A stretch of DNA of 32,000 nt, taken from Breznakia sp. PF5-3. Its GTDB lineage: Bacteria > Bacillota_I > Bacilli_A > Erysipelotrichales > Erysipelotrichaceae. Location of the stretch: contig NZ_JAQFIQ010000002.1 in assembly GCF_029504745.1 (NCBI RefSeq), positions 81,287 through 113,286 on the forward strand, read 5' to 3'. This document shows positions 2,941-22,584 of the stretch, one piece after another; within the stretch, counting starts at the first letter, position 1; every line of letters starts with the position of its first letter. The position numbers and the translations under genes are program-made. The notes below the pieces were generated by a model that was not told the DNA's origin, did no database searches, and saw nothing but the letters and a program-made list of their open reading frames with translations.

Positions 2941-2953
2941 TTCTTTTGCCCTC

Positions 2954-3010: not shown

Positions 3011-3041
3011 ATAAAGTGTATCGAAAATGCCTTAAAGTGTA
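3011..3041 (+). promoter_or_regulatory. Pair of perfect 9-nt direct repeats TAAAGTGTA with a 12-nt spacer (candidate LytTR operator)
   Basis: TAAAGTGTA occurs at 3012-3020 and again at 3033-3041, with spacer 3021-3032 (12 nt, 21-nt periodicity). In register 3013-3021, AAAGTGTAT matches 8/9 of the published LytTR consensus [TA][AC][CA]GTTN[AG][TG]. The second copy, AAAGTGTAA, matches 7/9. Confidence 0.5.
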
Positions 3042-3064
3042 AGAATTGAAAAAAGATATTACGG

Positions 3065-3103
3065 TATAATTAAAGTAGGTATAAATATAAAAAAGAAAGG
3101 AGG
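3065..3103 (+). promoter_or_regulatory. Candidate -10 box and Shine-Dalgarno sequence of the giant gene
   Basis: TATAAT lies at 3065-3070. The only -35-like hexamer (TTGAAA 3046-3051) is just 13 nt away, so there is no properly spaced -35, as expected for an activator-dependent promoter. AGGAGG at 3098-3103 sits 6 nt before ATG 3110. Confidence 0.4.
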
Positions 3104-3109
3104 CAGTTT

Positions 3110-3193
3110 ATGAAAAAAAGTGGCTTTTTGAAATTATTGATTTGTATAGCTGGTGTACTTATTTTTGGACTTGGTACAAGTGCAGTAAGTGCA
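3110..3193 (+). other. Sec-type signal peptide of the giant protein
   Basis: A KK n-region, a hydrophobic core LLICIAGVLIFGL, and AVSA followed by DE (predicted cleavage after residue 28). There is no lipobox, because residue -1 to the Cys is Ile. Confidence 0.7.
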
Positions 3194-6100
3194 GATGAGA
3201 TTACCCTCTCAGATACACCGCAATCAGATACACCAGTTGTTACAGTACAAAGTGATATTAAAAAGTTCGATGTGAATGGTACTGAATACACTACGTTAAA
3301 TGAAGCTGTAAATGCAGTAAACACTGCAAGCGGTGATGTCGTTTTCAAAGTACCAGCAGGGACACATGGAACTTTATCAATTGATAATGTAGCAATTAGC
3401 AAATTGACAATTGAACCAACGTCTGCTGGGGCAGTTTCATTTACCGATATTAGTTTTAAGAATATGAAAACAAACCTAAATATCGATTTGAAATCAATTA
3501 CGGTAAATGGGAAAATAAATCTAGAAAATGCTTCTGGATTAGTTTTTAATGCAACAACAGCACAGTTTTCTACAGTAGCAATCCATGGTATGGAAAATAC
3601 TACTCTAGATTTTTCAAGCCGCGTAGGTGCAGTTAATTTCATATTATCTGGATCTATTGGAGGTAGTGTTATTAACGGAGGGAATGGAAATGATGTATTC
3701 ACCCTAAATGAAGTGGTTGCAACAGATCTTGTTCTTGACGGAAAAGCAGGGACTAATAAAATTGTTTCAAATATCAGTGGCGAACTGACATTTGAAGCTA
3801 CAAATATTAAGTCAACTTCTGGAGATATAGCATTTGCTAATATTTCAAATGTTGAAGATACAGCATCAGATCACAGTATTGTGACGTTACCAGATAGCGA
3901 TAATGCAATTGCATTTACAAGTGATGCTGGAAACATAAAATATGACTTAGGAGGTGTTGGGTTTGTACTTAATGGAACAGGAAAAATAACAGTTCTAGGA
4001 GGTAGTGGAAACGATACAATTACATTGAATGGAATTGCTAATCCAAACCTTACACAGTTTAGTGTAGATGGAGGTAATGGAAATGATAAGATATCAGTTG
4101 TATCATCCATTACACTATCGAATGCTGATGTAAAACTAGTAGGTGAACAAATTGAAATTGTTGGTGCGAAAGGGAATATTTTTAATATTTTAGCGAAATC
4201 ACTAACATTGGAAGCAAAAAACAATGCTAGTAGTGCAAGCAAGGTTGAGAGTAAGGTAACCATAAGGTATGCGAAAATTCAGGTGAGTGCTGATATTCGG
4301 ATTTTATCAAATGGTTCTCAGTTAGTAGATATTGATGGACAAGGTACGAGTGTTGTTAAAAACATTGATACAAAAAGTTCTATTGAATTAGAGAGTGTCG
4401 AGTTTATTGCAAGTAATATTAATATCTCTTCAGCAGCTATTTCTGAAATATCAGGTGATGATACAAAGAGTAGGGCAGTAAACAACATCAGTAATAAATC
4501 CCATTTGAGTATATTTGGGGATTCTTCTTTTAGAGCAACAAACAATTTGATGTTTAGTAGTGTTAGTAAAATACTTTCAGCAATTGAAGTAGGTGCGGGC
4601 GAAATCCCAATTTCAATTGCAATGAATTCCATTGTTTCGGAAGCACTATTAACAATTGATGGTAATACAAAATTAAATAGTAGTAGTGTTGCTATGAATG
4701 TAGATAATATAATTGATTCTAAAGTTTTAGCAGATGGATCAAGAGCACCATCGTCCCAAAGCGAGGCAAGTGCAAGTGGTGCATTTATTGCAATTCACAA
4801 TATCCGCCAGATAACAAAAGGGGATATTGGAGAGAATGTAAAAATTGGTGGTATTAATACACCAATTGCAAAAGATGTATCGTTAAAAGTGAATGCATCT
4901 TTAAAACTTGATACACAAGCGAAATCGATTGGTGATGGATATAAAGGAAGTACTGGAACAAACATTAGTTTACAAGGTGTTGTTCAAGAAATTAAAGACC
5001 TTTTAAAATTAACACCTTTCGCTGATATAGCTGCTATATTAAGTGATGATATGTTAACGATATTAGGTTCGGTTAATGCATCAAGTGAAACAGCATTAAC
5101 AAAACAAATGGTTGGAGCATTTGCTTTCAACAATGTTAAAATGACTACAAGTGCAAAATATAAAGCAGATAGTTATATTACAGGAAATTTGAATGTTATT
5201 TCTAATGCTTCAATTAATACGGAAACAATTGCCGATGGTTCTGCAAAAGTAGATGTGGGTGAAGCTGTAATTCCAATAGGTATTGGTGTTGCAGTAGCAT
5301 TACATAAAGTTGATTATGAAAATACAGCAAATGTAGCAGTATCAACACTTCGGGCAAAAGATGTAAATGTATTAGCAAATGAAAGTGCAAATACGAACAC
5401 ATCAAAAATCGTAGCCAAAGCAGGTGTAAACCGTGGTGACTTTGGTATCGGTGGAGCATTTGGTATTACGATTTATAACATTACTACCAAAGCAACAATT
5501 GATTCTTCACAGATTCAAGCAACAGGTAATGTAAATGTTATTACGAATGATAAACATGATGTGAGTATTGACGCTGATTGTAGTTCTGACAAAGCAGTTG
5601 GAGCAGGTATTGCAGTTTTAATTTTTGAAGATATTGCAATGTCACAAATTTTAGACAGCGTAAAAATACTAAGTGTTAAAGACTTAAATGTTTTAACAAA
5701 CAGTATTTCAAATACTATTTTAGATGTGAAGTCTGGCGGTAATGGAGGTTTGAGTATTGCTCCAGGTGTAGCCGTTAATATTAATTTAAATGATATTCTA
5801 TCACAATGTTTAGCAGCAACAGTTGCAACAGGTGATATTAATGTTAAGTCAGTAAGTAAAAAAACAAGAAAAACAACAAGTGCTAGTAATTTAGTTGATA
5901 AAGGTGGAATTGGGGCTACCGTTTCATTGGTTATTAATATTGATAAAAACAAAGCACTTCTAGGTGGAAAAGTAAGTGGTCGTGAAGTGCATGTACATGC
6001 AACCTCACATCACCGCAGTGACGCATATGCTACGGCAAGTCCTGAGGGAGAATCTGACCCTGACCCCGATGCCAAGGAAACATCTCCAGAAGATTTAGTT

Positions 6101-9100
6101 AATAAATTGCGTGGAGCTGTTGATCAGCTAATGGGTAATGAAGGCGATGATAAATTAAGTGATAAATTTAGTGCTGATATGTCTACGCAAGAAGGTAAAA
6201 TTCAAGTAGCTGGTGCAGTAATTGTAGTATATTTGGAAACAAAAAATGAAGCAATTATTGAGAATGCTGAAATTACAGCTGATAAAGTAGAAGTATTGGC
6301 AAAAGAAGCAGTTGCCATTTATAACTTTGCCAATGCAAATGTTAGTGATGGTGTCCAAACAGGAGCTGCAACAGCAGTAATTGTTTTGGTAAGTGATATT
6401 CAAAACAAAGCACAAATAAAAAGTAATGTAACAATGAATGTAAAAGCACTAAGTGTTGTAGCATGTGGTGATACATTAGAAAAAGTAAATGAATTAGCAA
6501 AAGATGATAATGATAATAAAACTGTAACAAATGATAAAAACACATTTGCCAATGTATCTTTATCAGGAGCAGGAGCATCAAAGAATGGAATTGCGGGAGC
6601 AGTTGTATTAGTATTTGTTGATCAAGCTTATGATGCAAGTGTAGATGGAAAAGTTACTGTTTTAAAACAAGATGGAAATACACCAAAAATAGAAATTAAA
6701 GCGGATTTGAAAGAACGTTTCTATTCGCGTGGTTTCTCAGAAGCAAAATATGTGGCTGGTGGAAATAATAATTCTACAAACCAAAGCAAATCGAAAGGTA
6801 TTGCACCTTCCTTTGTAATGAATTATTGTTCAACAACAGCAAATGCGATTTTGGCGTCAAACGGTGCTATTAAAACAGCTACCGGAGCCAAAGCAGATGT
6901 ATTGATTCAAACAACGTTTGATTCAAGTATTGATGCAGAAGCAGAAGCAGGTTCTGGTGAAGGTAAAACAGCCACTGACATCACAATTGATGGAGCGGTT
7001 GTATTGAACTTACTATCACGTGATATCTCAGCTAAAATCTTAGCTGGTGGTGTAGTGAATGTTACTGGAACATTAAGTGTATTACAAAAAACAACAAGTA
7101 CTACAAATGCAAAAGTACATGCTGGTGCGGAAGCGAAGGCAACTGCTGTTGGTGCAGCTGTTGCAGTTACATATTTTAAAGCAAAATATGCAGCAATCGT
7201 TTCAGGGAGTGTAAGTATTAGTGGAAAATTAAGTGTTATATCAGAAGCAAAAACAATTGATATTGTAGAAGCTACTGGTACAAGTAAAGGTGTAAGTGAA
7301 AAAGACTTTAAAGATAAATTTAAAGACTTTGATTTGAAAAAAGTATTAAAAGGTGAGTCATTTGGTAGTGGTGAATCGACTAAGACTGGTGATACAGTTG
7401 CCGAATTTACAGGTGGAAAAGCGGATCAAAACACAAGTTCATCAATTTTAGGTGCAACGAATGTTACAACGATGGAACCAGATACAAATGGAAAGACAAA
7501 TCCGAAAAAAGGTGAACAAGTAGCAATCGCAGCAGCCGTAGCTGTAACTATTCTTCAACATGATGTATTAGCATCAATGGATGGTATAGCCAAAGCTGGT
7601 GAAATAGAGATTAAAGCGATCAATGACAATAACTTTAAATCTTATAATGGATCAAAAGCTTCAAGTAATGGTACAGCAATTACGTTAAGTGTTGCGGTAG
7701 CAATTCTTGGAAGCAAAACGGAAGCTTATGGAAATATGATGGAATCTTTAGGTGATATCACAATTTCAGCTTCTGGAAGTATTAATATGGATGAAACATT
7801 TAAAAATGCAGTAACTTTATTAGCAGTTGGTATGGCTTCTGTTGGTAAAGAAGGTGAGCTATCATTAGCTGGTTCTATCGCATTCTTAAAATATGAAAAT
7901 GTATTGAAAGCAATGATTTTAGAAAATGCAGAAGTAAAAGCAAACGGAAAAGTAAGTGTAACAGCGATTGAAAATAATAAGTTAGCTGCAAAAGCATGGA
8001 ATTATGCAGGTGCAGGAAATTCAAATGCTGTTGCTGTAGGTACTTCTTTTGCAATGATTTTCGCATCATCAACAGTACAAGCAATCATTGCCAAAGGTGC
8101 TAAATTAGAATTGGATGCATTATATGTAGAAGCAAAACGTAAACGTGTGAATCCAAATGAATTGTCATTTAACTTTGAATATAAAGAAGGCATGTTTGAT
8201 GATTTTGATGCATTTGATTATATTGATATTACGAACTTCTTAGCAAGTAATAATTATTATATTGAAGTATTAGGAGCAAGCAATGCTTCTAAAGGAAACT
8301 TAGCTTTACAAGGTTCTTTTGGAATCTTGATGTTTGATAATATTACAGAAGCAAAACTTGAAGCTGGAGTAGAAGTTACAGCTATTAATGATATTACAAT
8401 CAAAGCAGATAGTGATGTCAATGTGAAAGTGATCACAGGTGGTGTAGCGAATGCTAATCAAGTTGGTATTGGACTAAATACAGGTACAATCGTTGATGAA
8501 AGTAAAGTTACAGCATCCATTGGTAATGCAGTAAAACTTACAACGAATACAGGTGGTGTTTTAATAGATGCATCATCAAGACAAGATTATTTAGTTGTTT
8601 CAGTAGCTGCTTCGAAAGCAACAACAGCAGGTATTGCCGGTGTTGTAAATGTGATCTTATCGAAAAACAAGGTAAATGCTATCATTGGCAATCAAGCAAC
8701 AGTAATTGCGAAAAAAGATATTCAAGTATTAGCGAAGAATGATTCATCGTTTAAAGGAATATCACTTGGAGCAACAAAAGGTGGAAAAGCAGGAGTTGGT
8801 TGTACAGCTGCTGTAATCCTTATTGAAAATGAAACCAATGCTAGTGTTGGTGAAAATGTAACATTAAAAGCAGATGGTAATATTATTGTGAAAGCAACTT
8901 CATCTGAAGATCTAGCATTTATTATTACAAGTGCTGCTGTTTCTGATAATGTTGCAATTGGATTAAGTGGAGCTTATGCACAAATTGAATCTAGTACAAT
9001 TGCATCTATCGGTGATGGACATGATGTTACAGCATTGAATTTAAATATTGAAACAGCATCGAAAACAGTAAGTAAATCAATCAATGGTGGAGTAACAGCT

Positions 9101-15100: not shown

Positions 15101-18100
15101 ACAATGCAAGTAGTACGAGAAGTTACAAAGAAAATTGTAAAATGGTTACCATGGCCATTCAATAAACTCGTGAAATGGATTGTCGAAACAATCGTAGAAA
15201 CGGTTGAATATTTCGTGAATGAATTGGTACCAAAAGTATTAAATAGTGAAATCGATAAAAAAGAAGAGAATAAATATAATCGTGAGAATACCATTACATT
15301 GAATGGTAAAATCTATTATGGATCAAGTGTTCCAATTGAAATCACGATTGATAAAGATGGAAATATTTCATCAACAACAGGAGCAACTGCATATAAAGAT
15401 AAAGATGGTAACATTCATATTACATCGTTTGGAAAAATTGCTTCTGGATCACTTATTATCACATCTTATGCAGGTGAGGTAAATGGAAATGTAACAGTTT
15501 ATCGAAATGTTGATATTTCAATGATTAAGGTTGTAAATGAATCTCCATATAATATTTATATTGGAGGTATCAACTTTAATGATGAGGATATAGAAAATCC
15601 TGAACATGTAATAACAGCAAATATAAATAATTTGGAAATTCTATATGTAAGTGAAGGTGATGGAAAGACAAGAGTAATTATCAATAGTCTCTTTGGAGGA
15701 GATATTGTCTTCGAAAGTGGTATTGAACTATTGAATGGAATCTTAGAGTTGAGTACCAATGCAGATATAAAAACAACTGCAGACGCAAACTTAAGATTCA
15801 AAGAATTAAAGATCTATAAGGCGAGAAATGTGGGAAGTGCAGATAATCGTTTTACGATTTATTTGGCTGATGAAGGATTGGAAGATTCTTATATTACAAT
15901 TGATGCAGCAGAAAATGTATATCTATCTGTTAGTGCATTAGACTTTATTGATCTTAGTGAAGAAGCTTTCCCTGATCGAAAGTTACAAATTATCTTTAAG
16001 AATGTTTCAGTAAGTGGTAAGTTTGATGTTCGTACATCAACAGCAATGTATATTGAAAATATATTATTGATTGATTTTGGTAAAACGAAGTTAGTACCAA
16101 TCACTGAAATTAAAGAAATTTGGGAATGGGATCCTACAGCTGGTGATGATGGTATGGGTGCATATGTATTCTTAGGTGCTCAAGAAATTGTTATAGGCTA
16201 TAAGATCGAAATGGAAAGTGGTGAATCCATTACACCAAAAACGAAGCCAGCAGGATTAGAAGTTGTCTTTGATGGTAAGGTAGAAAGTGGAGAAACATAT
16301 TTTGATATAAAAGATAGTGACTTTATCTTTAGTAAAAATGGAAGTTTAAACAGCACTTACAATACCTTGATTACCAAAGGAAACTTGAGTACACAAAAAA
16401 CCTCTGGAATTGATATTCTTGGTAAATCATTGATTTTAAAAATTGATGGAATGATTGGTAGTGAACAAAATGTTATTCTAACAGCTATTGATACATTACA
16501 AGCAGAAAGCGAAAAAGATGTATATGTGAAAAATAACAAGTTGTTGACAGTGAAAAAATTAGTGGCTGAAAAAGCATATCTTACAGCTGTTGATTTAATT
16601 GTTGAACATGCTCAAAGTGATGTATTGAAACTATATTCAGATAAAGCTATTACAGCAAATATCAGTGTGAATAATTTGTTTGCACAAGCGATTGAAAATA
16701 TCGTAATCACAAATGATAAAACACTTACATTAGAGGGTGTTACAACAAATGCTAATATTAAAATTACTGTGGATGGAAACTTGTTAGGAAACAAAACAAG
16801 TGCTTACCATTTAAAAGGTAAAGAACTTTCAATTCATAGTAATAAAGGTATTGGTAATGCAACTACATATCTAAAGACACACTTACTTACAGATGGATTT
16901 ATCAATGTAGAAGCAAAAGACAATGTTTATATTGAAGAAATAACAGGCAATCTAATTATTAAAGCAATAGATGCAACAAATAAAGCAGTACATTTAAAAG
17001 CAAAAGAAGGAATTCTTGGATTACAAGATGGAACACATATCTATGCGAAAGATGTATACCTGGATGCAACGAAATCGATTGGCTCGGCAACGAGATATTT
17101 GAATATTAAACAAGATGCAGGTGGTAAAGTTGTTGCAAATAGTTTAGAAAATATATATCTTCATGGTGTAGATGGATTAGCAATTGAGTCGATTCAAACA
17201 GCGAAAGATGTATTCTTAAGTGCTAAACAAGATATTATGGCGGTTGGTAATGGCGCTCATATAGTAGCTGTTAATACCGATATAAGAAGCACATTAGGTA
17301 ATGTTGGATCTAGTAGTAATCGTATGGTTTTAAATACGAGTGGATTGGTAAAGGCTTATGCAAAAGAAAGTGTTTATCTAACACACACAGGAAGATTGAC
17401 AATTGACAAGATAGAAGCAGGTAAGGTAGTTGATTTAAAAGCAGTGGATATCTTTAGTGATACAACACCAGCAATTAAAGCAAATAAAGCAATCTTAACT
17501 GCAACGAATGCGCTTGGAAGTAGTTTAGAGCGATTGTATATGTCTGTTTCTGAATTTACACTAACAGCGAAAAATGCTTATATCAGTAATGATAAAGATG
17601 TTGCAGCAGTAGGTGAAAGCAATATTCAAGAGACATTAGATCTTGAAGTGAGTGGAAGTCTATCTGGAAGTAGCGGACATCTATTAAAAGCAAATAAGCT
17701 AAAAGTAGTAAGCGATGCTTCAGTAGGAAGCATGGAAGCAAAAATGAATTTATCTGTGAATGTTCTTGATGTAGTTGCAAAAGCATCTGTATACTTTAAA
17801 AATGATTCAACAAAAGATTTAAGAATTGAAAAAATTCATGCAGGTGATACTGTTGATATGTATACAGGCAATGTAATTGCAGGTGATATTCATGCAAAAT
17901 TCCTAAATGGTGTTAGTACAGGAGCGATGGAACTTCATACAACAATTGATGAAGTTGCTCTGCAGGCTACAAAGAAAATAGCACTATATAACAATACAGA
18001 TGTATTGATTCATACAATTCAAAGTGGAGAACGTGTATTTATCCAAAATGCTGGTCAGGTATCTGGTAAAGCAGGCGTAGTAAATATCAAGGCTTCAGAA

Positions 18101-21100
18101 TTGGAAATGGTTGTTTCACAAGGAATTGGAAATAATTTAGGATATGTAACATTGAATGTTAGTGGAAACATAAAAGTAACTGCAGATAAGTCAATCTATC
18201 TTCATGAGACAAAAGGTAATATGAACATTGATCTTGTGAAGACAAAGGAAACAGCATACTTGAAAGCAGAAAAATCAATTCTTAATGCTTCTACACAAAA
18301 CAATATTGAAGCTCAAAAAGCAGTGCTTGAAGCTGGTGGAAGTATTGGATTGAAGAATAAGTTATTAAAGGTTGATTTGAGTGGATCATTGTATGCAGAT
18401 GGAAATGGTGTCTTTGTGGAAGAAACAAGTGGGGATTTGATTATTGATCAAGTGAATGCTCACAACAAAGATGTTATTCTTTCAACAAATGCTTCATTGT
18501 TTGGTGAAAGTAATAAGACACATATTATTGGAAACAATATTGAATTAAGAACAAAAGGTAGTATTGGAACATCTAAAAATGCACTACAAGTAAAACAAAG
18601 TGCAACAGGTATTCTAAATGCTACAGCGAAAAACAATATATACTTGTATGGAACAGATACGCTTGGATTGGGTGCATTGACAAGTGATGAAAACATTTAC
18701 TTGAGTGCTTATCAAGATATTGAGAATCGATCTGATTGTGCATATAACTTGAAAGCTAAATCAGTAACCCTTGAATCTATAAAAGGTGATATTGGATCAA
18801 AAGATAAGAAAGTTATTCTTAAAGTGCCAAAAGAAATCTATGCAAAGGCATATGGTGGTGTTTACTTATCACATTATGGAAGTGATATGAACATTGGTAA
18901 GATTGAAGCTGGTACGAATGTGGTAATTGATGCACAAGAAAATATCTTTGGTTCATCATCTCCAAGTATCATTGCTGATGCAGCAGTGATAAATGCTAAA
19001 AAAGTTATTGGTTCAAGAAGTGAAAGATTTGTTCTTGATGTAAATAAACTTACTGTAAATGCAGCAAAAACATATCTTACTAACTTGAAGAGTTTACACA
19101 TGTGTGGTGATAGTAATGTAGAAAGTGTATTTGATCTATATGTAAAAGGAAATCTAACATCTGCGAAAAATGCAAATGTTAGTGCGGATACACTCATTGT
19201 TAAAGCGAGTGGTAATATTGGTAATAGTAGCCAAGGATTGAATACTAGTGTATCGAAATTGTATGCAAATGCAAAAGACAATATTTACATTGTAAATGCT
19301 TCTGATAAGGATTTACATGTAAAAGACATTACAAGTAGTAATATTGTTAATATCATTAGTGGCAACATCGTTGTTGATAATGTGAAAACAGATGCTCTTA
19401 GTCTTACAAGTTCAAAAAATGCAACCGTGAATGCAATAGTAAATAAGTTGAATATGAAAGTTAGTGGTAATGCAACCTTCACAAACGCGAAAGACTTATT
19501 AGTGGAAAAAGTTAGTGTTGGTAAGAATATCACATTGCATGTAAATGGAAATATTCTAGCAAATAAAAATACATTATTAGATGCAGTGAATATGACAATT
19601 CGTGCAGATAAGAATATTGGTTCAGCGAATGCATGGTTAAAACTTAAATCAAAAGGCGGAGTATTAAATATTAAAGCTAGTGAATATATGTATGTAGAAG
19701 ATTTAGCGTCAATGAGAATCGGCTCAATGACAGCGTCGAATGCGATTCACTTAAAGGCAACTGGAAGTATAACAGGTGGAGGTATCCAAACCAATACGTT
19801 ACACTTGCAAGCTGGACAGATTGGTCAAGGTATTCAAAGCAAACTATCTACCAATGTGAAAACGCTTTATGCAAATGCTTCAGGTAATATTTATTTGAAG
19901 AATGCAGGAAGTTTGAATATTAAGAATATGGTTTCTAAAGGAAACATATATCTTGAAGCAACATCGATTTTGGGAGATATGATTTCGGCGAATTATCTTG
20001 AAGCAATCGTAAGTGGAACATTGCAGTTTACCTCAAGTGTAAACCGTATGAAACTACAAGCTTCAACAATTCAAGTTCGCAATACAAGAAGTGTTATCTT
20101 GGATGATATTAGAGCACAATCAGTTACCATTAACAATGTTGGAAATGTAACTTCAAATGGTAGAATTTATGCTGAAACAATCGGCTTTAATATTCAAGGT
20201 AATGGTAATTTGAAAATTGCTGGAAGTAAGATTAGTGGAAGTGCAAGTGGTAACTTAAAGATTCACAATAACAAGTCTATGAGTATTACAACAGCAACAA
20301 AACTACAAGCTGGTGGTAATCTTGAAATTGAAGCGAATGGAAAAATCCATGTAGCTGCCAATGCTTCATTACGTGGAAATAGTATTAAGCTAGTTTCATC
20401 GTTGAGTGAGGGATTGGAAATCTTAGGTAAGCTATATGCGAAGACAACAGCATTGTATGGTGGATTGAATAACAAATATATCATTGATCAAGATGCTGGT
20501 GATGTTAGTATTTATTCACGTGTAAGTAATAGTTATCACGCGATTACATTGCTTTCATTAGCGAACAAGTTTGTATTTAATGGAAGTAGTGGAAAAGATA
20601 CAGTTCAAGTAGATATGAAAAACTTCAATGCAACTTCATCAAAACAATTTATCTTTGATGGAGCAGGTGGAGATGATGTATTAACACTTGACTTAAAAGC
20701 AACAGGTACAAATAATCATTATACGATTAAGAATATAAATCGTTTAGAATTGAATGGACAAACATCAGATGATACTTATGAAATTGATCGTGGTGGATTC
20801 GCATACGATCAAGGAAATGGTAAAGATACATATGATGTATCAAACATCGGTAGTGTTAAATTCAATGCACAAGGCGGAAATAATGTATTTAAACTTATTG
20901 ATACATTTGCAAAAACAGAAATTCTTGGTGGTAATGGTAATAACACGTTCTATATTGGTGTTATTGTAAATGATAGTACAAATGCAACGAAGACAACGGA
21001 AGGTTACTTATCAAGAGGTACAAGTCATGATACAACCATTCGTGATGGAAGTGGAAATAGTACATATCGTATCTATTCAACAAAAGGAAGTTTAGTGATT

Positions 21101-21520
21101 TATGCAGGTGAAGGTAGTGATATCTTTACAGTGAAAGCATTTATTACATATGATGATAACGGTGATTTGATTCCTTATAGAAATAAGGGAATGGAGTTCC
21201 ATGGAGATAGTAATGACAAAGTAATTATTATTAAGTCTGCACTATTTGATATGATTTCTCATAATGGTGATGAAATTACAGCTCCAGGTATCATGATCAA
21301 ATTATTCGGTATTGATGATGTGGAAGTAGAAGAATTCACAAGGGCAAAAGGTTCAACAGCAGCAATTGCAACATTTGATTTTATTCTATATAATATGGCA
21401 CAATTGCATAGTAGAGGAATTTTAATCCCATTGATTATCGGCATCATCTTACTGTTATTAGCGATAGGATATCTAATCTATCGAAAAAGAAAGAAGAAAT
21501 TAAACTTAGTAACTTCTTAA
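3110..21520 (+). CDS. Giant (6,136 aa) secreted, C-terminally membrane-anchored repeat protein; putative filamentous beta-helical surface adhesin of unknown family
   Basis: A single stop-free 18,411-nt ORF with a strong SD. It has a signal peptide (MKKSGFLKLLICIAGVLIFGLGTSAVSA/DE) and a C-terminal TM helix followed by RKRKKK. Composition is dominated by G/A/V/I/T/S/N, with very few Cys, Trp or Pro. It contains two long degenerate repeat regions and GGxGxD motifs at both ends. No LPXTG motif is present. Confidence 0.9.
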   Translation: MKKSGFLKLLICIAGVLIFGLGTSAVSADEITLSDTPQSDTPVVTVQSDIKKFDVNGTEYTTLNEAVNAVNTASGDVVFKVPAGTHGTLSIDNVAISKLTIEPTSAGAVSFTDISFKNMKTNLNIDLKSITVNGKINLENASGLVFNATTAQFSTVAIHGMENTTLDFSSRVGAVNFILSGSIGGSVINGGNGNDVFTLNEVVATDLVLDGKAGTNKIVSNISGELTFEATNIKSTSGDIAFANISNVEDTASDHSIVTLPDSDNAIAFTSDAGNIKYDLGGVGFVLNGTGKITVLGGSGNDTITLNGIANPNLTQFSVDGGNGNDKISVVSSITLSNADVKLVGEQIEIVGAKGNIFNILAKSLTLEAKNNASSASKVESKVTIRYAKIQVSADIRILSNGSQLVDIDGQGTSVVKNIDTKSSIELESVEFIASNINISSAAISEISGDDTKSRAVNNISNKSHLSIFGDSSFRATNNLMFSSVSKILSAIEVGAGEIPISIAMNSIVSEALLTIDGNTKLNSSSVAMNVDNIIDSKVLADGSRAPSSQSEASASGAFIAIHNIRQITKGDIGENVKIGGINTPIAKDVSLKVNASLKLDTQAKSIGDGYKGSTGTNISLQGVVQEIKDLLKLTPFADIAAILSDDMLTILGSVNASSETALTKQMVGAFAFNNVKMTTSAKYKADSYITGNLNVISNASINTETIADGSAKVDVGEAVIPIGIGVAVALHKVDYENTANVAVSTLRAKDVNVLANESANTNTSKIVAKAGVNRGDFGIGGAFGITIYNITTKATIDSSQIQATGNVNVITNDKHDVSIDADCSSDKAVGAGIAVLIFEDIAMSQILDSVKILSVKDLNVLTNSISNTILDVKSGGNGGLSIAPGVAVNINLNDILSQCLAATVATGDINVKSVSKKTRKTTSASNLVDKGGIGATVSLVINIDKNKALLGGKVSGREVHVHATSHHRSDAYATASPEGESDPDPDAKETSPEDLVNKLRGAVDQLMGNEGDDKLSDKFSADMSTQEGKIQVAGAVIVVYLETKNEAIIENAEITADKVEVLAKEAVAIYNFANANVSDGVQTGAATAVIVLVSDIQNKAQIKSNVTMNVKALSVVACGDTLEKVNELAKDDNDNKTVTNDKNTFANVSLSGAGASKNGIAGAVVLVFVDQAYDASVDGKVTVLKQDGNTPKIEIKADLKERFYSRGFSEAKYVAGGNNNSTNQSKSKGIAPSFVMNYCSTTANAILASNGAIKTATGAKADVLIQTTFDSSIDAEAEAGSGEGKTATDITIDGAVVLNLLSRDISAKILAGGVVNVTGTLSVLQKTTSTTNAKVHAGAEAKATAVGAAVAVTYFKAKYAAIVSGSVSISGKLSVISEAKTIDIVEATGTSKGVSEKDFKDKFKDFDLKKVLKGESFGSGESTKTGDTVAEFTGGKADQNTSSSILGATNVTTMEPDTNGKTNPKKGEQVAIAAAVAVTILQHDVLASMDGIAKAGEIEIKAINDNNFKSYNGSKASSNGTAITLSVAVAILGSKTEAYGNMMESLGDITISASGSINMDETFKNAVTLLAVGMASVGKEGELSLAGSIAFLKYENVLKAMILENAEVKANGKVSVTAIENNKLAAKAWNYAGAGNSNAVAVGTSFAMIFASSTVQAIIAKGAKLELDALYVEAKRKRVNPNELSFNFEYKEGMFDDFDAFDYIDITNFLASNNYYIEVLGASNASKGNLALQGSFGILMFDNITEAKLEAGVEVTAINDITIKADSDVNVKVITGGVANANQVGIGLNTGTIVDESKVTASIGNAVKLTTNTGGVLIDASSRQDYLVVSVAASKATTAGIAGVVNVILSKNKVNAIIGNQATVIAKKDIQVLAKNDSSFKGISLGATKGGKAGVGCTAAVILIENETNASVGENVTLKADGNIIVKATSSEDLAFIITSAAVSDNVAIGLSGAYAQIESSTIASIGDGHDVTALNLNIETASKTVSKSINGGVTAAGTVAVSGTTTSNVIKKKVKSLIGKGRVNTKNNIVVKVDSEEKILAIVVAVGASKSVAVQGSVPVTIIENDILASIDGEVIATDISISAKDKVDADVYAGGIGASSSVAIGAAVNTLYIQGKVIAQIADSANITAANLSIIADSENNILTTLISGAASGTVSVVGVVNTVLMSQQTKAVLGNSVILNIQKDILLKANAVNDFTCYVGALSAAGTVAVGASVNTVKLENIVSTVIGKTVEIIQNTDTNIGNLTLLATGKDSFFGVVAGIAGSGSVAVSASANTILNTSKITTEIGTDSNIKMGGSLYVKAYHDLMMKLYLGTTAVSVYAGVGTSVLVVVSEVAVANNVGDSAILNFTGSKTNTATNGITFVSASDVDIMSVVTSAAGGAAGVSPTSATFVLSGSTKNVIGDNASFTTDKKVSIDANSNTTIAPYIGSAGVGVAGIGASVLVINSSKETSTYIGKSASIKAVEGISISATSKNSFTGLVIGFSGGAVGVAASVNAMIIEDIVNAVSDTGSSLISSNGAVSVLAKSTQNYDLQTYTTSIGGAAVQASNATITFKSVINAALANAEALKDILVHALAEENIGTQIVGGAAGGIAVGGSVAVIISNNTINSYIQDASTLVSNGNITIKADDSLSIDSKTASLNLGSIAVGAGVNVILIQNTIAAYIGNKVNVSAANTLSVLATLNRVVSLKSLAASGGLVSGNGTVSVISLGITNDEVMNNAAKNDVSQANTNVQEALKTLKVQRDNSNSDGNDIIDEANTSLDDIQFDLLGYLINKTENNKDKTSSYIGEGSTIKAKNIVVSASEANEITLHSAAASIGAAGAGASVLVLKHGSYIRSYVGKNTSLSASEDIDVSAKATKQKYTINSVAGSAGVTLALGAAVTYMDIRGVIEAYLNDNVIVENVRNLNVNAIANYVVDTHAIGASLAGAGAVGASVLVINLATTIRATINDKVEIKKANDIKVHANLTNVLNAKAMAGAAGLLGSGQAVVLTITIAPSVSALLKNSVKVLDSSSISLWADADVKIDATITGASMAYGVAGGASVMTITNNAKMTAGVGTSGNITTGTMDVYNCYNTNKDGSVKADRFKVSATSVSGALYASLNGLVVTINDFMSMDTYLGGTIKAGAISVKGIAASMLDVTAKGFSVGLGALNAIVLNVNSKQNVLTRTLTSAQIEATSLSVNSEVYAKLTVKAEGTNGGAFTAGAVVATATLNPSIQTHIGDSNVIKTTGAVDVKTIYNVRNGMIQDGILLTGNNAGGGAITANYVDLTAIHTASIITAVNANSKITAGGDINVLTYAGLQASAIATAKAIGAIGIGDTKTNVNVGGSITTSISTGVELNASTIRIKSYVYGKAISEVIGASFGGLSVGASRATVTLNPVIETVSGLNAKLTATKDIQLVGYYNMKTTQPTAENPANDVEGNLAVIPDLGLGAFAKANGSSGNLTGVIGTQITVNHNTKVRTIIKANGQLVAGNSIFTYAYSAIQNSPTLKTDSGGLVSVGANQVKSTIQVETLVKVENSATLSAQQDIHLISYADISASAETRQSSGGLVNGGALNSAETTITSSTKIELGQTVSVKALANVFMNASTKIVNSAISTGKSVSGVAIGESKAINTITSTTKVIVGKSSTITAGDVLSLIAIESIKATATSLASEGVSILGSSKGATANITINENIGIEVANLVTFSAKELILLSTPIIEVVGNANATNSGIVALGEISSDVTLSLNNKIMFGDNTKLLSTGDLIIQALSDITVKVEGTGGSYGAFPSAVIKNTVNITNAVTSVSFANNNEVVATGTLKVNAETNLVATVKSIIKGSHGFVAHNNNAKAIANVNVNNTINLGVNGVYRGKNIYIFADIKTLNITTYAESKSYTASSKTYIDSLITVNANVTITATNVTLAATHELHLYSLISNFKMSAKTDARIIGVTGSIFANAKANANIKAKIIILGADSVLMGNDINIKASSPVNTNLVSVLNNHTEVDTVVEYVLVAVRKTMQVVREVTKKIVKWLPWPFNKLVKWIVETIVETVEYFVNELVPKVLNSEIDKKEENKYNRENTITLNGKIYYGSSVPIEITIDKDGNISSTTGATAYKDKDGNIHITSFGKIASGSLIITSYAGEVNGNVTVYRNVDISMIKVVNESPYNIYIGGINFNDEDIENPEHVITANINNLEILYVSEGDGKTRVIINSLFGGDIVFESGIELLNGILELSTNADIKTTADANLRFKELKIYKARNVGSADNRFTIYLADEGLEDSYITIDAAENVYLSVSALDFIDLSEEAFPDRKLQIIFKNVSVSGKFDVRTSTAMYIENILLIDFGKTKLVPITEIKEIWEWDPTAGDDGMGAYVFLGAQEIVIGYKIEMESGESITPKTKPAGLEVVFDGKVESGETYFDIKDSDFIFSKNGSLNSTYNTLITKGNLSTQKTSGIDILGKSLILKIDGMIGSEQNVILTAIDTLQAESEKDVYVKNNKLLTVKKLVAEKAYLTAVDLIVEHAQSDVLKLYSDKAITANISVNNLFAQAIENIVITNDKTLTLEGVTTNANIKITVDGNLLGNKTSAYHLKGKELSIHSNKGIGNATTYLKTHLLTDGFINVEAKDNVYIEEITGNLIIKAIDATNKAVHLKAKEGILGLQDGTHIYAKDVYLDATKSIGSATRYLNIKQDAGGKVVANSLENIYLHGVDGLAIESIQTAKDVFLSAKQDIMAVGNGAHIVAVNTDIRSTLGNVGSSSNRMVLNTSGLVKAYAKESVYLTHTGRLTIDKIEAGKVVDLKAVDIFSDTTPAIKANKAILTATNALGSSLERLYMSVSEFTLTAKNAYISNDKDVAAVGESNIQETLDLEVSGSLSGSSGHLLKANKLKVVSDASVGSMEAKMNLSVNVLDVVAKASVYFKNDSTKDLRIEKIHAGDTVDMYTGNVIAGDIHAKFLNGVSTGAMELHTTIDEVALQATKKIALYNNTDVLIHTIQSGERVFIQNAGQVSGKAGVVNIKASELEMVVSQGIGNNLGYVTLNVSGNIKVTADKSIYLHETKGNMNIDLVKTKETAYLKAEKSILNASTQNNIEAQKAVLEAGGSIGLKNKLLKVDLSGSLYADGNGVFVEETSGDLIIDQVNAHNKDVILSTNASLFGESNKTHIIGNNIELRTKGSIGTSKNALQVKQSATGILNATAKNNIYLYGTDTLGLGALTSDENIYLSAYQDIENRSDCAYNLKAKSVTLESIKGDIGSKDKKVILKVPKEIYAKAYGGVYLSHYGSDMNIGKIEAGTNVVIDAQENIFGSSSPSIIADAAVINAKKVIGSRSERFVLDVNKLTVNAAKTYLTNLKSLHMCGDSNVESVFDLYVKGNLTSAKNANVSADTLIVKASGNIGNSSQGLNTSVSKLYANAKDNIYIVNASDKDLHVKDITSSNIVNIISGNIVVDNVKTDALSLTSSKNATVNAIVNKLNMKVSGNATFTNAKDLLVEKVSVGKNITLHVNGNILANKNTLLDAVNMTIRADKNIGSANAWLKLKSKGGVLNIKASEYMYVEDLASMRIGSMTASNAIHLKATGSITGGGIQTNTLHLQAGQIGQGIQSKLSTNVKTLYANASGNIYLKNAGSLNIKNMVSKGNIYLEATSILGDMISANYLEAIVSGTLQFTSSVNRMKLQASTIQVRNTRSVILDDIRAQSVTINNVGNVTSNGRIYAETIGFNIQGNGNLKIAGSKISGSASGNLKIHNNKSMSITTATKLQAGGNLEIEANGKIHVAANASLRGNSIKLVSSLSEGLEILGKLYAKTTALYGGLNNKYIIDQDAGDVSIYSRVSNSYHAITLLSLANKFVFNGSSGKDTVQVDMKNFNATSSKQFIFDGAGGDDVLTLDLKATGTNNHYTIKNINRLELNGQTSDDTYEIDRGGFAYDQGNGKDTYDVSNIGSVKFNAQGGNNVFKLIDTFAKTEILGGNGNNTFYIGVIVNDSTNATKTTEGYLSRGTSHDTTIRDGSGNSTYRIYSTKGSLVIYAGEGSDIFTVKAFITYDDNGDLIPYRNKGMEFHGDSNDKVIIIKSALFDMISHNGDEITAPGIMIKLFGIDDVEVEEFTRAKGSTAAIATFDFILYNMAQLHSRGILIPLIIGIILLLLAIGYLIYRKRKKKLNLVTS
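4780..15050 (+). repeat. Coding array of degenerate ~54-58-aa (about 165-175 nt) repeats, roughly 50-60 units by eye
   Basis: The recurring unit is x-A-x-[IV]-G-x-x-[AV]-x-[IV] ... [IL]-x-[IV]-x-A ... G-x-G-x-[AV]-[AV]-[GS]-[AV]-S-V-x-V. Examples are AGVGVAGIGASVLVIN (10409-10456), IGAAGAGASVLVLK (11570-11611) and LAGAGAVGASVLVINL (11894-11938). The repeats are conserved at protein level only. I saw no long identical DNA repeats. Boundaries are approximate. Confidence 0.6.
16928..19690 (+). repeat. Two colinear super-repeat units (495 aa and 426 aa) built of ~75-80-aa sub-repeats; a partial third unit follows
   Basis: Unit A starts YIEEITGNLIIKAIDATNKAVHLKAKEG (16928). Unit B starts FVEETSGDLIIDQVNAHNKDVILSTNAS (18413), exactly 1,485 nt later. 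A third unit starts YVEDLASMRIGSMTASNAIHLKATGS (19691). A and B align without gaps for over 300 residues at roughly one-third identity by eye, for example KSIGSATRYLNIKQDAGGKVVANSLENIYLHG against GSIGTSKNALQVKQSATGILNATAKNNIYLYG. Confidence 0.65.
21419..21499 (+). other. C-terminal transmembrane anchor plus basic stop-transfer tail of the giant protein
   Basis: ILIPLIIGIILLLLAIGYLIY (21419-21481) is followed by RKRKKK (21482-21499), 6 more residues and the stop. No LPXTG-like sortase motif precedes it. Confidence 0.75.
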
Positions 21521-21524
21521 TAAC

Positions 21525-21559
21525 AAAAACCCCTGATTTATGAATCAGGGGTTTGTTTT
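21525..21559. terminator. Bidirectional rho-independent terminator between the giant gene and the convergent M42 peptidase gene
   Basis: A 9-bp GC-rich stem, CCCCTGATT (21530-21538) with AATCAGGGG (21543-21551), has loop TATG. It is flanked by AAAAA (21525-21529) and TTTGTTTT (21552-21559). The right arm encodes the last codons of the minus-strand gene. Confidence 0.7.
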
Positions 21560-22584
21560 GTGATATAAGATAATACTAATTTCATGGTATTTTCTACGGC
21601 TTGATAATGGGTTCGTTCCATCCCATGGCTGGCATGAACACCAGGACCAATCAATGCTCCTTTGATATTGTTGCCTCCACGCAAGGCAGCACTTACATCA
21701 CTGCCATAGAAGGGATAGATATCGACTGCATAGTTTAACTTGTTCTGTTTTGCTAAAGCAATTAAATCGTTTGTCATATCATAATCGTATGGACCAGAAG
21801 AATCCTTTGCACAAATGGATACATCATACTCTGTACATGCTAGATCTAATCCAATACACCCCATATCAACTGCTAGAAGAGCATTGATATCTTCTGGAAT
21901 ATAAGAAGATCCATGACCAACTTCTTCATAAGTAGAGAAGATGAAAGTTACATTATAAGGTAAAGTAATAGCATCCGTTTTGATTTTTTCTAAAATACCT
22001 AGTAGTAGTGATACACTGATTTTATCATCAAGGAATCTTGATTTGATAAAATCACTTTTGGTGATCTCTACTTTTGGTTCAATGGCGATATAATCACCAT
22101 TTTGAATTCCAAGAGCTTCTACGTCTTCTTTGGTTTTAACGACTTCATCGATTCTTACTAACATATTGTCAATCTTACGCTCTTGTGTAGAAGCGTCAGG
22201 ATAGACGTGTGCAGCTGGTGTATTGGCTAAAATAGTTCCAGTATAGATTTTATTGTCTCTTGTATAAATCTTGCAATACTCTGCGTCTAATGTTGGTATA
22301 ATAGGCCCACCAAGATTAGTAAGTGCTAATGTTCCATCACTTTGAATAGATCGTACCATAAGTCCCAAGGTATCTACATGTGCACAGATACCAAGTATAT
22401 AAGATGTATCCTTACCGGTTAATGAAACCATTAAGTTTCCTTTTTCACTTTTCTTGTAAGAAAAACCAAATTCTTTGATTTGCGTTTCTAGATACGCGAT
22501 TGCTTCTTTTGTATATCCAGTTGGCGAATCAATGGATAATAGTGTTTTTGCTGTATTCAATACATAGTCTTTATTAAAGTTCAT
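21538..22584 (-). CDS. M42-family metallo-aminopeptidase (PepA/FrvX/YsdC-like)
   Basis: 348-aa ORF with M42-like blocks: HVDTLGLMV (His/Asp metal ligands), FLDDKISVSLLL, FSTYEEVGHGSS (the EE motif) and GPGVHASHGMERTH. The SD is AAGAGG, and the gene starts 9 nt downstream of pyrR, so it is probably co-transcribed. Confidence 0.8.
   Translation of the reverse strand: MNFNKDYVLNTAKTLLSIDSPTGYTKEAIAYLETQIKEFGFSYKKSEKGNLMVSLTGKDTSYILGICAHVDTLGLMVRSIQSDGTLALTNLGGPIIPTLDAEYCKIYTRDNKIYTGTILANTPAAHVYPDASTQERKIDNMLVRIDEVVKTKEDVEALGIQNGDYIAIEPKVEITKSDFIKSRFLDDKISVSLLLGILEKIKTDAITLPYNVTFIFSTYEEVGHGSSYIPEDINALLAVDMGCIGLDLACTEYDVSICAKDSSGPYDYDMTNDLIALAKQNKLNYAVDIYPFYGSDVSAALRGGNNIKGALIGPGVHASHGMERTHYQAVENTMKLVLSYITKQTPDS

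Follow-up and report, generated by a model that had tools for sequence, protein, structure and literature searches.

A single gene that fills more than half of a 32,000-nucleotide stretch of the Breznakia sp. PF5-3 genome (hereafter, the window) is predicted to encode a giant fibre displayed on the surface of this monoderm, a Gram-positive inhabitant of insect guts. According to this reading, the protein would be exported by the Sec route, tail-anchored, oriented with its N-terminal head at the distal end and probably involved in adhesion. We assign it a probability of roughly 60%; the adhesive role is argued from architecture and analogy. Repeats of the LktA type were already known from filamentous proteins that Gram-negative bacteria secrete; what is new is their predicted Sec-exported, tail-anchored arrangement in a monoderm. 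Giant tail-anchored fibres of this type in Bacillota constitute a small uncharacterised family, probably of adhesins. The features of the gene are collected in Table 1.

Table 1. Features of the giant gene and its flanks in the window, with the corresponding residues of the encoded protein.
Feature	Residues (aa)	Window coordinates	Strand	Basis or remark
Shine-Dalgarno sequence AAAGGAGG		3096..3103	+	6 nt before ATG; direct sequence reading
Giant ORF		3110..21520	+	ATG start; 6,136 aa + stop; 18,411 nt, 57.5% of the window
Signal peptide (predicted)	1-28	3110..3193	+	signal-peptidase I type site, VSA before D
N-terminal head	29-640	3194..5029	+	sequence comparison, motif search
Head GGxGND motif	190-195	3677-3694	+	motif search
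Head GGxGND motif	297-302	3998-4015	+	motif search
Head GGxGND motif	321-326	4070-4087	+	motif search
LktA-type 53/54-aa repeat region	~640-3850	5027..14659	+	NF012206, own HMM, periodicity
Strong core of the array, ~26 units	1327-3062	7088-12295	+	own HMM
Non-repeat insert in the array	2712-2799	11243-11506	+	NF012206, own HMM, periodicity
Conserved central module	3850-4450	14657..16459	+	homologue comparison, AF2
Amphipathic helical hairpin	3989-4044	15074-15241	+	hydropathy, AF2
WLPWPFNK at the hairpin turn	4012-4019	15143-15166	+	homologue alignment
Second repeat regime	4420-5610	16367..19939	+	14/15 copies of ~71-aa unit; periodicity, AF2
C-terminal GxGxD module	5750-6060	20357..21289	+	HMMER, AF2, Foldseek
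Widely shared core of the GxGxD module	5905-6025	20822-21184	+	includes TEGYLSRGTSH
TM helix ILIPLIIGIILLLLAIGYLIY (predicted) and RKRKKK	6104-6124 and 6125-6130	21419..21499	+	hydropathy, AF2
Bidirectional intrinsic terminator		21527..21554	.	12-bp stem; common to the convergent M42 peptidase gene

Gene integrity and genomic context

The giant ORF is a genuine, intact gene and not an assembly artefact. Base composition predicts a stop about every 12 codons, and hence the probability of 6,136 consecutive sense codons is ~1e-235; the remaining five frames across the ORF contain 137-712 stops. GC content at codon positions 1, 2 and 3 is 0.45, 0.40 and 0.17, respectively. The identical protein is deposited under four NCBI accessions, including MDF9823781.1, with the labels "hypothetical protein" or "beta strand repeat-containing protein". 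An assembly artefact or a decaying pseudogene is extremely improbable. Nothing specific was found in its favour, beyond the general point that giant repetitive ORFs may be assembled wrongly. This explanation was rejected given that the DNA repeats of the gene are degenerate (none exceeds 60 nt at 72% identity), the protein recurs in four accessions, an independent Logan assembly matches window positions 11538-27410 at 100% identity, and collinear homologues exist in five other genomes. The intact frame of the collinear B. pachnodae orthologue, the strong codon-position GC signal and the absence of stops over the whole ORF also count against it.

A promoter scan found no sigma-70-like promoter upstream of the giant ORF. 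The ten neighbouring ORFs encode a histidine kinase, a TPR protein, an M42 peptidase, a PRTase, a radical-SAM activase, a thioredoxin, PFL, a response regulator/histidine kinase pair and a metallophosphoesterase. Among them there are no TpsB, type I secretion (ABC/MFP), sortase or accessory-Sec genes, and no immunity-like small gene lies downstream of the giant ORF. A LytTR/GHKL two-component system adjoins the giant gene. Homologues do not share a common downstream context.

Predicted export signal and membrane anchor

The N-terminus, MKKSGFLKLLICIAGVLIFGLGTSAVSA followed by DE, shows the n/h/c organisation expected of Sec signals and ends in a VSA site, as judged by inspection by eye and hydropathy. 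Besides this signal peptide, the only region with strongly hydrophobic 19-mers is aa 6099-6126, where the Kyte-Doolittle value peaks at 2.96, and AlphaFold2 (AF2) puts a C-terminal helix at aa 6105-6135. Together with RKRKKK, this helix is predicted to be a stop-transfer tail anchor. A regular-expression search found no LPXTG-like motif in the protein, and no short motif preceding the TM segment is conserved among five homologues. The TIGR01167 profile scored 11.7 bits, below its cutoff of 15.9, in a match limited to profile positions 13-34, which cover the hydrophobic segment and the tail. With neither an LPXTG motif or variant nor a TIGR01167 score above cutoff, a sortase-anchored protein was rejected.

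Homologues from B. pachnodae, Thomasclavelia, a Eubacteriaceae MAG and a Bacillota MAG also end in a TM helix and a K/R tail. In the Lacrimispora indolis homologue, choline-binding cell-wall-binding repeats (Choline_bind_3, 50.9 bits; Choline_bind_1, 31.5 bits) replace the TM anchor. Because homologues end in one or the other of these elements, the C-terminus is taken as the cell-proximal end.

These results bear out most of the initial annotation. Its unbroken frame of 18,411 nt (57% of the window) was recounted as 6,136 codons plus a stop, and the strong Shine-Dalgarno sequence, the Sec signal peptide, the C-terminal TM helix followed by RKRKKK and the absence of LPXTG were all recovered. 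Its estimate by eye of about ten Cys was exact: the protein has 10 Cys, 8 Trp and 51 Pro. The absence of enzymatic motifs agrees with Pfam and NCBIfam, neither of which detected an enzymatic domain, and the almost entirely beta character agrees with AF2 models of two 1,200-aa tiles. The proposed monoderm host is Breznakia, a member of the Erysipelotrichaceae, which are a monoderm family. Two repeat architectures were also confirmed: aa 1701-3100 repeat with a period of 53/54, and aa 4421-5620 contain a 498-aa super-repeat.

Repeat arrays and central module

The first repeat regime belongs to a catalogued type. NF012206 (LktA_tand_53; cutoff 50) scored 75.7 bits over 8 stretches within aa 1-2000 and 146.5 bits over 15 stretches within aa 1801-3800, and degenerate units flank the strong core on both sides. 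In the AF2 model of aa 3560-3967, each unit consists of two strands of 15-26 residues and one of 4 residues, with strand pLDDT above 90. Foldseek returned only beta-helical neighbours for the model covering this region (HpmA, the FHA secretion domain and EtpA), at an insignificant E of 1.5-8.

The units of the second regime, with the consensus ...KGSIGSASNRLKLKV...ENVYLENTKGDLNIGKI..., are grouped into the 498-aa super-repeat, and a 15th copy lies upstream, at aa 4214-4273, within the central module. In the AF2 model, the part covered is a beta-helix whose ~24-aa coils each comprise three short strands, with a pLDDT of ~90-96; the tile spanning aa 4937-6136 has a mean pLDDT of 89.5 and is all-beta with short strands, followed by the terminal helices. 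These units are most closely related to the ~76-aa repeats found in a TPS-bearing "LktA family filamentous adhesin". The Toastrack (DUF4097) profile PF13349 reached 41.8 bits (E 1e-10) only when six copies of the consensus were artificially joined, a procedure that inflates the score, and had no match in the Pfam search of tiles of the native sequence.

Between the two regimes lies the central module, a helical hairpin followed by a mixed beta domain, which the initial annotation had not described. The motif W-PWP-NK at the hairpin is invariant in four homologues, and the WLPWPxNK hairpin is the best-conserved stretch across phyla. Giant proteins from other Bacillota, from Planctomycetota and from Burkholderiales likewise have it C-terminal to their LktA-type arrays. 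In Planctomycetota and Burkholderiales giants, unrelated Ig/cadherin or RTX modules come after the hairpin, and a Burkholderiales relative of the LktA-hairpin module has true RTX nonapeptides. Small metzincin-like proteins from several phyla carry a related motif in their hydrophobic N-terminal part; a genome scan found no Fusobacterium locus with the hairpin motif. AF2 confidence for the hairpin is low (pLDDT ~45-57). Its helical moment is 1.6-1.7 versus 0.3-0.5 for strand, and its mean hydropathy is 0.3-0.6 versus 2.96 for the real TM helix. A literature search returned nothing on the WLPWP motif, on this giant family or on Breznakia surface proteins.

N-terminal head and GxGxD modules

The head is the fastest-evolving part of the protein, with 45% identity to B. 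pachnodae compared to 65-78% in aa 800-2000. It is not alignable between genera, and alignments to other genera start only at aa ~285-382. Neither Pfam nor NCBIfam identified a ligand-binding domain in it. Heads also differ among relatives, with a Listeria-Bacteroides repeat in the Eubacteriaceae MAG protein and a Lipase domain in a Planctomycetota giant.

The GGxGxD motifs, interpreted earlier as caps, are present in the head, and looser GxGxD matches lie near the C-terminus, at aa 5851, 5902 and 6000; their likeness to RTX proteins proved weak. PF00353 (HemolysinCabind) gave its sole match in the head, at 13.5 bits (E 0.075; cutoff 23), and no tandem nonapeptides were found with it in the tiles or in the C-terminal 396 aa. 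Foldseek aligned the C-terminal module to serralysin and lipase RTX domains in PDB with probabilities of 0.9-0.98 and E values of 6e-3 to 0.1. The best match for the C-terminal AF2 model was the S-layer protein RsaA (E 1.3e-3), at TM-scores of 0.16-0.23 and an rmsd near 38 A, which therefore indicates only generic beta-helix similarity. Neither AF2 model had a match in PDB at E <= 1e-3. The modelled fold of the C-terminal module weakly resembles RTX beta-rolls. Ca2+ binding by the GxGxD motifs of the two ends, with capping or nucleation of folding, is a possibility tempered by an RTX similarity that is sub-threshold in sequence and weak in fold.

A small family of giants in Bacillota

The informative source of homologues was an exhaustive HMMER search. 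A search for proteins sharing words with the giant yielded, among the matches listed, only a fragment (P0009). Pfam searches of three overlapping tiles gave no match, and single-sequence and profile searches of PDB sequences gave no meaningful match. Presence in related genomes was confirmed for five other genomes, with collinear homologues of 6,000-6,600 aa. By BLAST, collinear matches were obtained with the proteins of B. pachnodae (P0139; 6,626 aa, 55% identity), Thomasclavelia (P0135; 6,601 aa, 25-30%) and a Eubacteriaceae MAG (P0010, also listed as L006; 6,300 aa, 26%); the Bacillota MAG (L004) encodes a further collinear homologue. All share the order signal peptide, head, LktA-53 array and WLPWPxNK hairpin module, followed by a beta-helix of 71-76-aa units, a GxGxD/TEGYLSxG module and the TM helix with its basic tail. 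The giant gene is single-copy, and the family was found in 6 Bacillota species genomes of the 185,579 species scanned.

These data revise two earlier statements. The protein had been described as impossible to place in a characterised family. This no longer holds for aa ~640-3850, where the kinship with Fusobacterium LktA that had been suspected is supported by NF012206 scores above cutoff, and the second regime also has relatives. Similarly, its standing as an undescribed candidate does not survive as that of a one-off protein, since a small Bacillota family of giants has the same layout.

Comparison with known systems

LktA of Fusobacterium necrophorum is a secreted leukotoxin (bioRxiv 10.1101/534297). 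The Breznakia protein shares with this leukotoxin and with the NCBIfam "leukotoxin LktA family filamentous adhesin" or "tandem repeat-containing filamentous protein" entries (NF012204 and NF012206) the ~53-aa LktA_tand_53 repeats, above the curated cutoff, and proteins of both kinds are giant, nearly Cys-free and beta-rich, with a composition dominated by G/A/V/S/T/N. Unlike those proteins, it lacks both an FxxPxG/TPS domain and a TpsB partner, comes from a monoderm and relies on a predicted Sec signal and C-terminal TM anchor. It is also about twice as long, at 6,136 aa compared to 3,241 aa for F. necrophorum LktA. The absence of a TPS domain and a TpsB partner had been noted before, and both profile searches and the ten neighbouring ORFs were negative. 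NF012204, TIGR01901 and PF05860 gave no match at E <= 1 in aa 1-2000 or at E <= 10 in aa 29-640, while the positive control (P0011) scored 142.1 bits with NF012204 and 34.7 bits with TIGR01901. Membership of the TpsA/T5bSS exoproteins was rejected on these grounds and on that of the monoderm host.

The TpsA exoproteins FhaB, CdiA and HpmA are likewise long beta-repeat fibres with two regimes and a non-repeat module between them. However, the Breznakia protein has no Pfam TPS or Fil_haemagg match and no C-terminal toxin. Moreover, Breznakia has no outer membrane to cross, and the protein would be held by a C-terminal anchor rather than by an N-terminal TPS domain in TpsB. With RTX adhesins and S-layers (LapA, SiiE, MpIBP and RsaA, and also serralysin), the protein shares GxGxD beta modules, and RsaA and the serralysin/lipase RTX domains are the nearest, though weak, Foldseek matches of its C-terminal module, but it lacks tandem nonapeptides, a type I secretion signal and transporter genes, and its motifs are 20-50 aa apart. 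A type I-secreted RTX adhesin was rejected in view of the missing PF00353 nonapeptides, the C-terminus made of a TM helix and RKRKKK, and the lack of ABC/MFP genes in the window.

Among proteins of monoderms, Ebh and Embp of staphylococci are giant, Sec-exported and anchored by a C-terminal TM segment without LPXTG, and Ebh is built from alpha-helical FIVAR/GA modules. The Breznakia protein follows the same monoderm logic, with an N-terminal signal, a megadalton-scale ectodomain and a C-terminal TM helix with a charged tail. Unlike Ebh, it is all-beta with LktA-type repeats and has no FIVAR/GA match in Pfam. Giant1-5 of Apilactobacillus kunkeei, an insect-associated member of the Bacillota, are presumed adhesins of 3,000-8,000 aa that lie outside the cell; they combine a beta-solenoid head at the N-terminus with a rod of alpha-helical repeats and, at the C-terminus, an SH3b-like domain that binds the wall (PMC12863079). 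Anchor and stalk of the Breznakia protein differ from those of Giant1-5 and of the beta-solenoids of serine-rich repeat proteins (PMC12863079), and no sequence relation was detected in our analysis.

Proposed model and alternative explanations

In the model that we favour, SecYEG would export the pre-protein N-to-C, and cleavage would remove the 28-aa signal peptide. Transfer would stop at the one TM helix near the C-terminus, with RKRKKK on the cytoplasmic side, so that the C-terminus stays in the membrane. The ectodomain of ~6,070 aa would fold outside the cell into successive beta-rich segments, which are, starting at the membrane, the RTX-like GxGxD module, the beta-helix of 71-aa units, the central module, the LktA-type stalk and the variable head. 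The head, with its GGxGND motifs, would be the distal, ligand-contacting tip. At 4.8 A per beta layer, the fibre may be ~70-110 nm long, which would carry it well past the Gram-positive wall; the estimate is loose, since the LktA-type repeats may stack either as a parallel solenoid or as an antiparallel meander. Its role would most likely be adhesion or cell-cell or substrate contact in the gut. Such a protein may have originated as a mosaic of modules that belong to TPS or type I secretion in diderms, here combined instead with a Sec signal and a membrane anchor.

Some of the same data could be read as an envelope or matrix scaffold, that is, a coat, a spacer or a biofilm or cohesion matrix with no specific ligand, similar to the S-layer protein RsaA or to Ebh in the envelope. 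The Ca2+-dependent RsaA is the top Foldseek match, the stalk is more conserved than the head, membrane and cell-wall anchors are interchangeable among homologues, and Pfam and NCBIfam recognise no binding domain. Nevertheless, we regard a scaffold as unlikely: the RsaA likeness is of a generic kind, the gene is single-copy in a rare family, and variable heads with binding-type domains in relatives are better suited to a tip-mediated interaction. Distinctly unlikely, in our opinion, is a contact-dependent cytotoxin that damages membranes as LktA does, with the WLPWPxNK hairpin inserting into the membrane and the anchor keeping the toxin on its producer. Repeats in common with a secreted leukotoxin (10.1101/534297) are consistent with it, as are the strong amphipathicity of the hairpin helices, their conservation across phyla and the related motif in metzincin-like proteins. 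On the other hand, the name given to the family by NCBI is "filamentous adhesin", Pfam and NCBIfam detected neither toxin or pore-forming domains nor enzymatic ones, no immunity-like gene follows in a context that is itself not conserved, the hydropathy of the hairpin is far under that of the TM helix, and the Fusobacterium loci scanned lack the motif.

CdiA, which Ruhe and colleagues are said to have described in 2018, has the reported layout FHA-1, receptor-binding domain and FHA-2. Two beta-repeat regimes split by a non-repeat module that is conserved across phyla resemble this layout. By analogy, the central module could be the distal tip of a folded-back fibre with antiparallel regimes, its N-terminal half returning towards the cell or held in reserve until contact. 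This topology is very unlikely, considering that the C-terminus is a predicted TM anchor with no toxin or pretoxin domain, that the N-terminus has no anchoring feature after signal peptide cleavage, and that the Ig/cadherin or RTX modules following the hairpin in Planctomycetota and Burkholderiales giants are more in keeping with an array-end cap than with a tip. There is also a slim chance that the WLPWPxNK hairpin module is not a passive cap but an undescribed functional device, either a membrane-engaging element or a hinge, and the fibre an active contact-dependent machine. If true, a Gram-positive lineage would have built such a machine from the parts of diderm exoproteins, and not merely an adhesin.

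Returning to the adhesive, tail-anchored fibre, beta-repeat filaments of the LktA/FhaB type are regarded as characteristic of two-partner secretion, in which an outer membrane is crossed. In the present family, LktA-type stalk modules are found in the Gram-positive gut bacteria Breznakia, Thomasclavelia, Lacrimispora and Eubacteriaceae. These modules occur in proteins predicted to be Sec-exported and anchored by a TM helix or by choline-binding repeats; therefore, the stalk appears to be a portable module that is not tied to one route of secretion. The family may offer a tractable case for the folding of a beta fibre of ~6,000 residues outside a monoderm cell, and for the roles of the LktA-type repeat and of the conserved hairpin. 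Finally, our analysis puts a name to a family annotated only as "hypothetical" in the Erysipelotrichaceae of human and insect guts, bacteria whose colonisation factors are poorly known.

Results

The giant protein is encoded by one ATG-started ORF that occupies 57.5% of the window. With a stop expected about every 12 codons at the gene's own base composition, the chance probability of an open frame this long is ~1e-235, and the remaining five frames contain 137-712 stops. GC content at codon positions 1/2/3 is 0.45/0.40/0.17. We found AAAGGAGG 6 nt 5' of the ATG, in the position of a Shine-Dalgarno site, and an N-terminus, MKKSGFLKLLICIAGVLIFGLGTSAVSA|DE, organized like a Sec signal peptide. 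Apart from this segment, only aa 6099-6126 are strongly hydrophobic, and RKRKKK comes after them. The protein has exactly 10 Cys, no LPXTG-like motif, three GGxGxD motifs near the N-terminus and looser GxGxD motifs near the C-terminus. From the ORF to these motifs, everything that the initial annotation had seen directly is present.

Since the protein repeats are degenerate as DNA (the longest DNA repeat inside the gene measures 60 nt, with 72% identity), an assembler would have had nothing to collapse. Four NCBI accessions, all of unclassified Breznakia isolates, carry precisely this 6,136-aa sequence, and over window 11538-27410 an independent Logan assembly (run SRR35246390) shows 100% identity. 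Moreover, other genomes carry intact collinear homologues of comparable size. Altogether, these data essentially exclude that the ORF is an artefact. Neighboring genes encode an M42 peptidase, PFL and PyrR identical to those of Breznakia sp. PF5-3/PM6-1, and Breznakia is placed in the Erysipelotrichaceae (Bacillota).

The order of segments was derived from self-comparison, autocorrelation and iterated HMMs.

Features of the window and segments of the giant protein
Feature	Window (nt)	Residues (aa)	Remarks
LytTR-like ORF tail	1-136		two-component pair
Kinase	137-1486		two-component pair
Multi-TPR protein	1510-2958 (-)		482 aa
Giant gene	3110-21520 (+)		6,136 codons
Signal peptide		1-28	
Head		29-640	GGxGND motifs
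53/54-aa repeat region		~640-3850	strong core of ~26 units (1327-3062) flanked by degenerate ones
Non-repeat central module		3850-4450	
WLPWPxNK motif	15143-15166		
~71-aa unit		4214-5610	15 copies in 498-aa super-repeat; first copy (4214-4273) inside central module
GxGxD module		~5750-6060	includes TEGYLSRGTSH
TM helix and basic tail		6104-6130	
Bidirectional terminator	21527-21554		3' of giant gene
Split PFL-like enzyme	24370-26622		
ORF starting MKLPCIAIDVSKGKSHV...	31447-32000		runs off window end

Pfam gave no match in any tile, that is, in any stretch of the protein used as one query. The first repeat regime corresponds to LktA_tand_53 (NCBIfam NF012206, "tandem repeat-containing filamentous protein"), with scores of 75.7 and 146.5 bits (cutoff 50). 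For about half of the protein, the kinship with Fusobacterium LktA suggested in the initial annotation is hence backed by a profile match. As also anticipated, the hallmarks of two-partner secretion (TPS) are missing: the profile search found no FxxPxG/TPS domain in the giant protein (positive control P0011, 142 bits), and none of the ten neighbors of its gene codes for TpsB, the outer-membrane partner. In an exhaustive HMMER search with aa 4937-6136 against 1.84 billion representative proteins, only five proteins matched at E <= 1e-30. Among them is P0011, a Cyanobacteriota MAG protein annotated as "leukotoxin LktA family filamentous adhesin" (partial, 5,075 aa); it carries a TPS domain, and its body is made of ~76-aa repeats that share homology with the second regime. 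On the basis of these two homologies, the nearest relatives of both repeat regimes are diderm two-partner-secretion exoproteins. In the same search, the C-terminal module core (aa 5905-6025) was common to 114 proteins, 16 of which end in a TM helix and basic tail; none of the ten sharers tested has a Pfam domain.

AlphaFold2 modeled aa 4937-6136 (13-sequence alignment, mean pLDDT 89.5) as an all-beta structure, a beta-helix in which each ~24-residue coil contributes three short strands. In this model the GxGxD module is likewise beta, and the C-terminal end is helical (aa 6088-6101 and 6105-6135). Foldseek retrieved no solved structure at E <= 1e-3; the nearest was RsaA, an S-layer protein that binds Ca2+ (E 1.3e-3), along with serralysin and lipase RTX beta-rolls (probability 0.9-0.98, E 6e-3 to 0.1). 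The model of aa 3560-4759 (four sequences, mean pLDDT 71.5) resembles no solved structure in Foldseek. Its LktA-type part has two 15-26-residue strands and one 4-residue strand per ~53 aa (strand pLDDT >90), a fold that extends up to a low-confidence two-helix hairpin (aa 3989-4010 and 4017-4044, pLDDT 45-57). Beyond the hairpin come a mixed beta domain and the second-regime beta-helix, the latter with pLDDT 85-90.

Full-length, collinear homologues were found in B. pachnodae (6,626 aa, 55% identity), a Thomasclavelia sp. MAG (6,601 aa, 25-30%) and a Eubacteriaceae MAG (6,300 aa, 26%). A Bacillota MAG, whose locus starts within the gene, has a frame that stays open over at least 6,001 aa (30% identity in the best tblastn segment, central tile). 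Length polymorphism between related genomes, a proposed check, is evident within the genus: in B. pachnodae, the second regime is longer by one ~491-aa super-repeat, inserted near aa 4671-4680 (window ~17120-17150). All four homologues have the C-terminal TM helix and K/R tail, and the three with an available N-terminus have a signal peptide. The homologue of Lacrimispora indolis retains array and hairpin, but in place of a TM helix its C-terminus has choline-binding cell-wall-binding repeats (Choline_bind_3, Choline_bind_1; ~15500-15856 of its locus). The head is the least conserved part, with 45% identity within the genus versus 65-78% for aa 800-2000, and could not be aligned between genera. 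Other heads in relatives include a Listeria-Bacteroides repeat and a lipase domain. Downstream of the homologues lie unrelated housekeeping genes, so no dedicated partner gene is apparent there.

The most conserved stretch across the four full-length homologues, TVVxY...K..VV..VT.K..W[LM]PWP.NK[LI]VKW[IV]V, includes the motif of the hairpin, whose helices are strongly amphipathic and not TM-like. Scanning one genome per GTDB species for this pattern, we found it within giant open frames of the Bacillota listed here and in two diderm MAGs. The Planctomycetota giant comprises, in order, Lipase, 21 LktA_tand_53 stretches (426 bits), hairpin and Big_9/Cadherin domains; that of Burkholderiales has 11 such stretches, hairpin and true RTX nonapeptides. 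In 6/7 giants, the window protein included, the exact motif follows the LktA-type array on its C-terminal side, and the Bacillota MAG matches in the surrounding region without it. On the simplest reading, the hairpin would be a conserved element that caps the LktA-type stalk C-terminally or serves as its junction.

WLPWPxNK and matching flanks (KIC.WLPWPLNKLC.WV) are likewise present in a set of small proteins, ~315-350 aa long (loci L009-L017; e.g., L009 9926-10918 and L015 413-1351) from MAGs of Woeseia, Deltaproteobacteria, Chloroflexota, Bacteroidales, Lentimicrobiaceae and Dehalococcoidia. Here the motif belongs to an N-terminal part rich in Cys, Trp, Val and Ile, and in most cases the protein ends with a metzincin-like HExxGHxxDLxxHxxDPxNxM with weak Peptidase_M10 matches. 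Hhalign matched the two motif alignments over 34 columns (probability 99%, E 2e-18), both sets having been picked by the motif itself. We found no Pfam family, PDB entry or paper describing the small-protein motif.

A LytTR-type response regulator and a GHKL (HATPase_c_5) histidine kinase adjoin the giant gene in two distant genera, upstream in the window and directly downstream in Thomasclavelia (19122-21204 of that locus); a regulatory link may exist. The multi-TPR gene and the giant gene are divergent. The PFL-like glycyl-radical enzyme is divided between two ORFs: a TAG (26377-26379) terminates the first, of 669 aa, midway through the Gly_radical domain, and the second, of 77 aa, starts at 26386 behind a GGAGG site of its own and contains the glycyl-radical motif RVSGYAV. 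The independent assembly calls the split likewise. By eye, the ORF at the window end resembles the N-terminus of an IS110-family transposase.

Discussion

The giant gene is intact and its product combines a signal-peptide-like N-terminus with a single C-terminal TM helix and basic tail. The ectodomain is predicted to be almost all-beta, and sequence comparison shows module homologies and an anchor swap in a relative. These interchangeable cell-attachment modules are the best evidence here that the C-terminus would be cell-proximal and the N-terminus distal; a CdiA-like fold-back topology is less well supported. We propose that the protein would be exported by Sec, its signal peptide cleaved by signal peptidase, and the TM helix retained as a stop-transfer anchor with the tail in the cytoplasm. 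Folding would occur outside the cell, where GxGxD modules might help through Ca2+, giving a fibre of ~70-110 nm. The variable head would be the contact tip, from which an adhesin-like role in the gut would follow. A leukotoxin-like role in contact-dependent membrane damage, or a non-specific coat or matrix role, has less behind it than this adhesin-like function.

Erysipelotrichaceae are monoderm, and the host thus has no outer membrane. The protein shares modules and way of working with LktA/FhaB-type filamentous exoproteins, but membership in this class is rejected, as TPS domain, TpsB and outer membrane, the defining secretion features, are all lacking. In logic the protein parallels Ebh, a tail-anchored staphylococcal giant, but with an all-beta build unrelated to that of Ebh. 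It also differs from the Apilactobacillus Giant proteins in stalk and anchor (PMC12863079). Databases label it "hypothetical" or "beta strand repeat-containing," and we found no description in the literature. Giant adhesin-like proteins as such are already familiar; what deserves attention is a hitherto undescribed hairpin module and a stalk that appears portable across envelopes.
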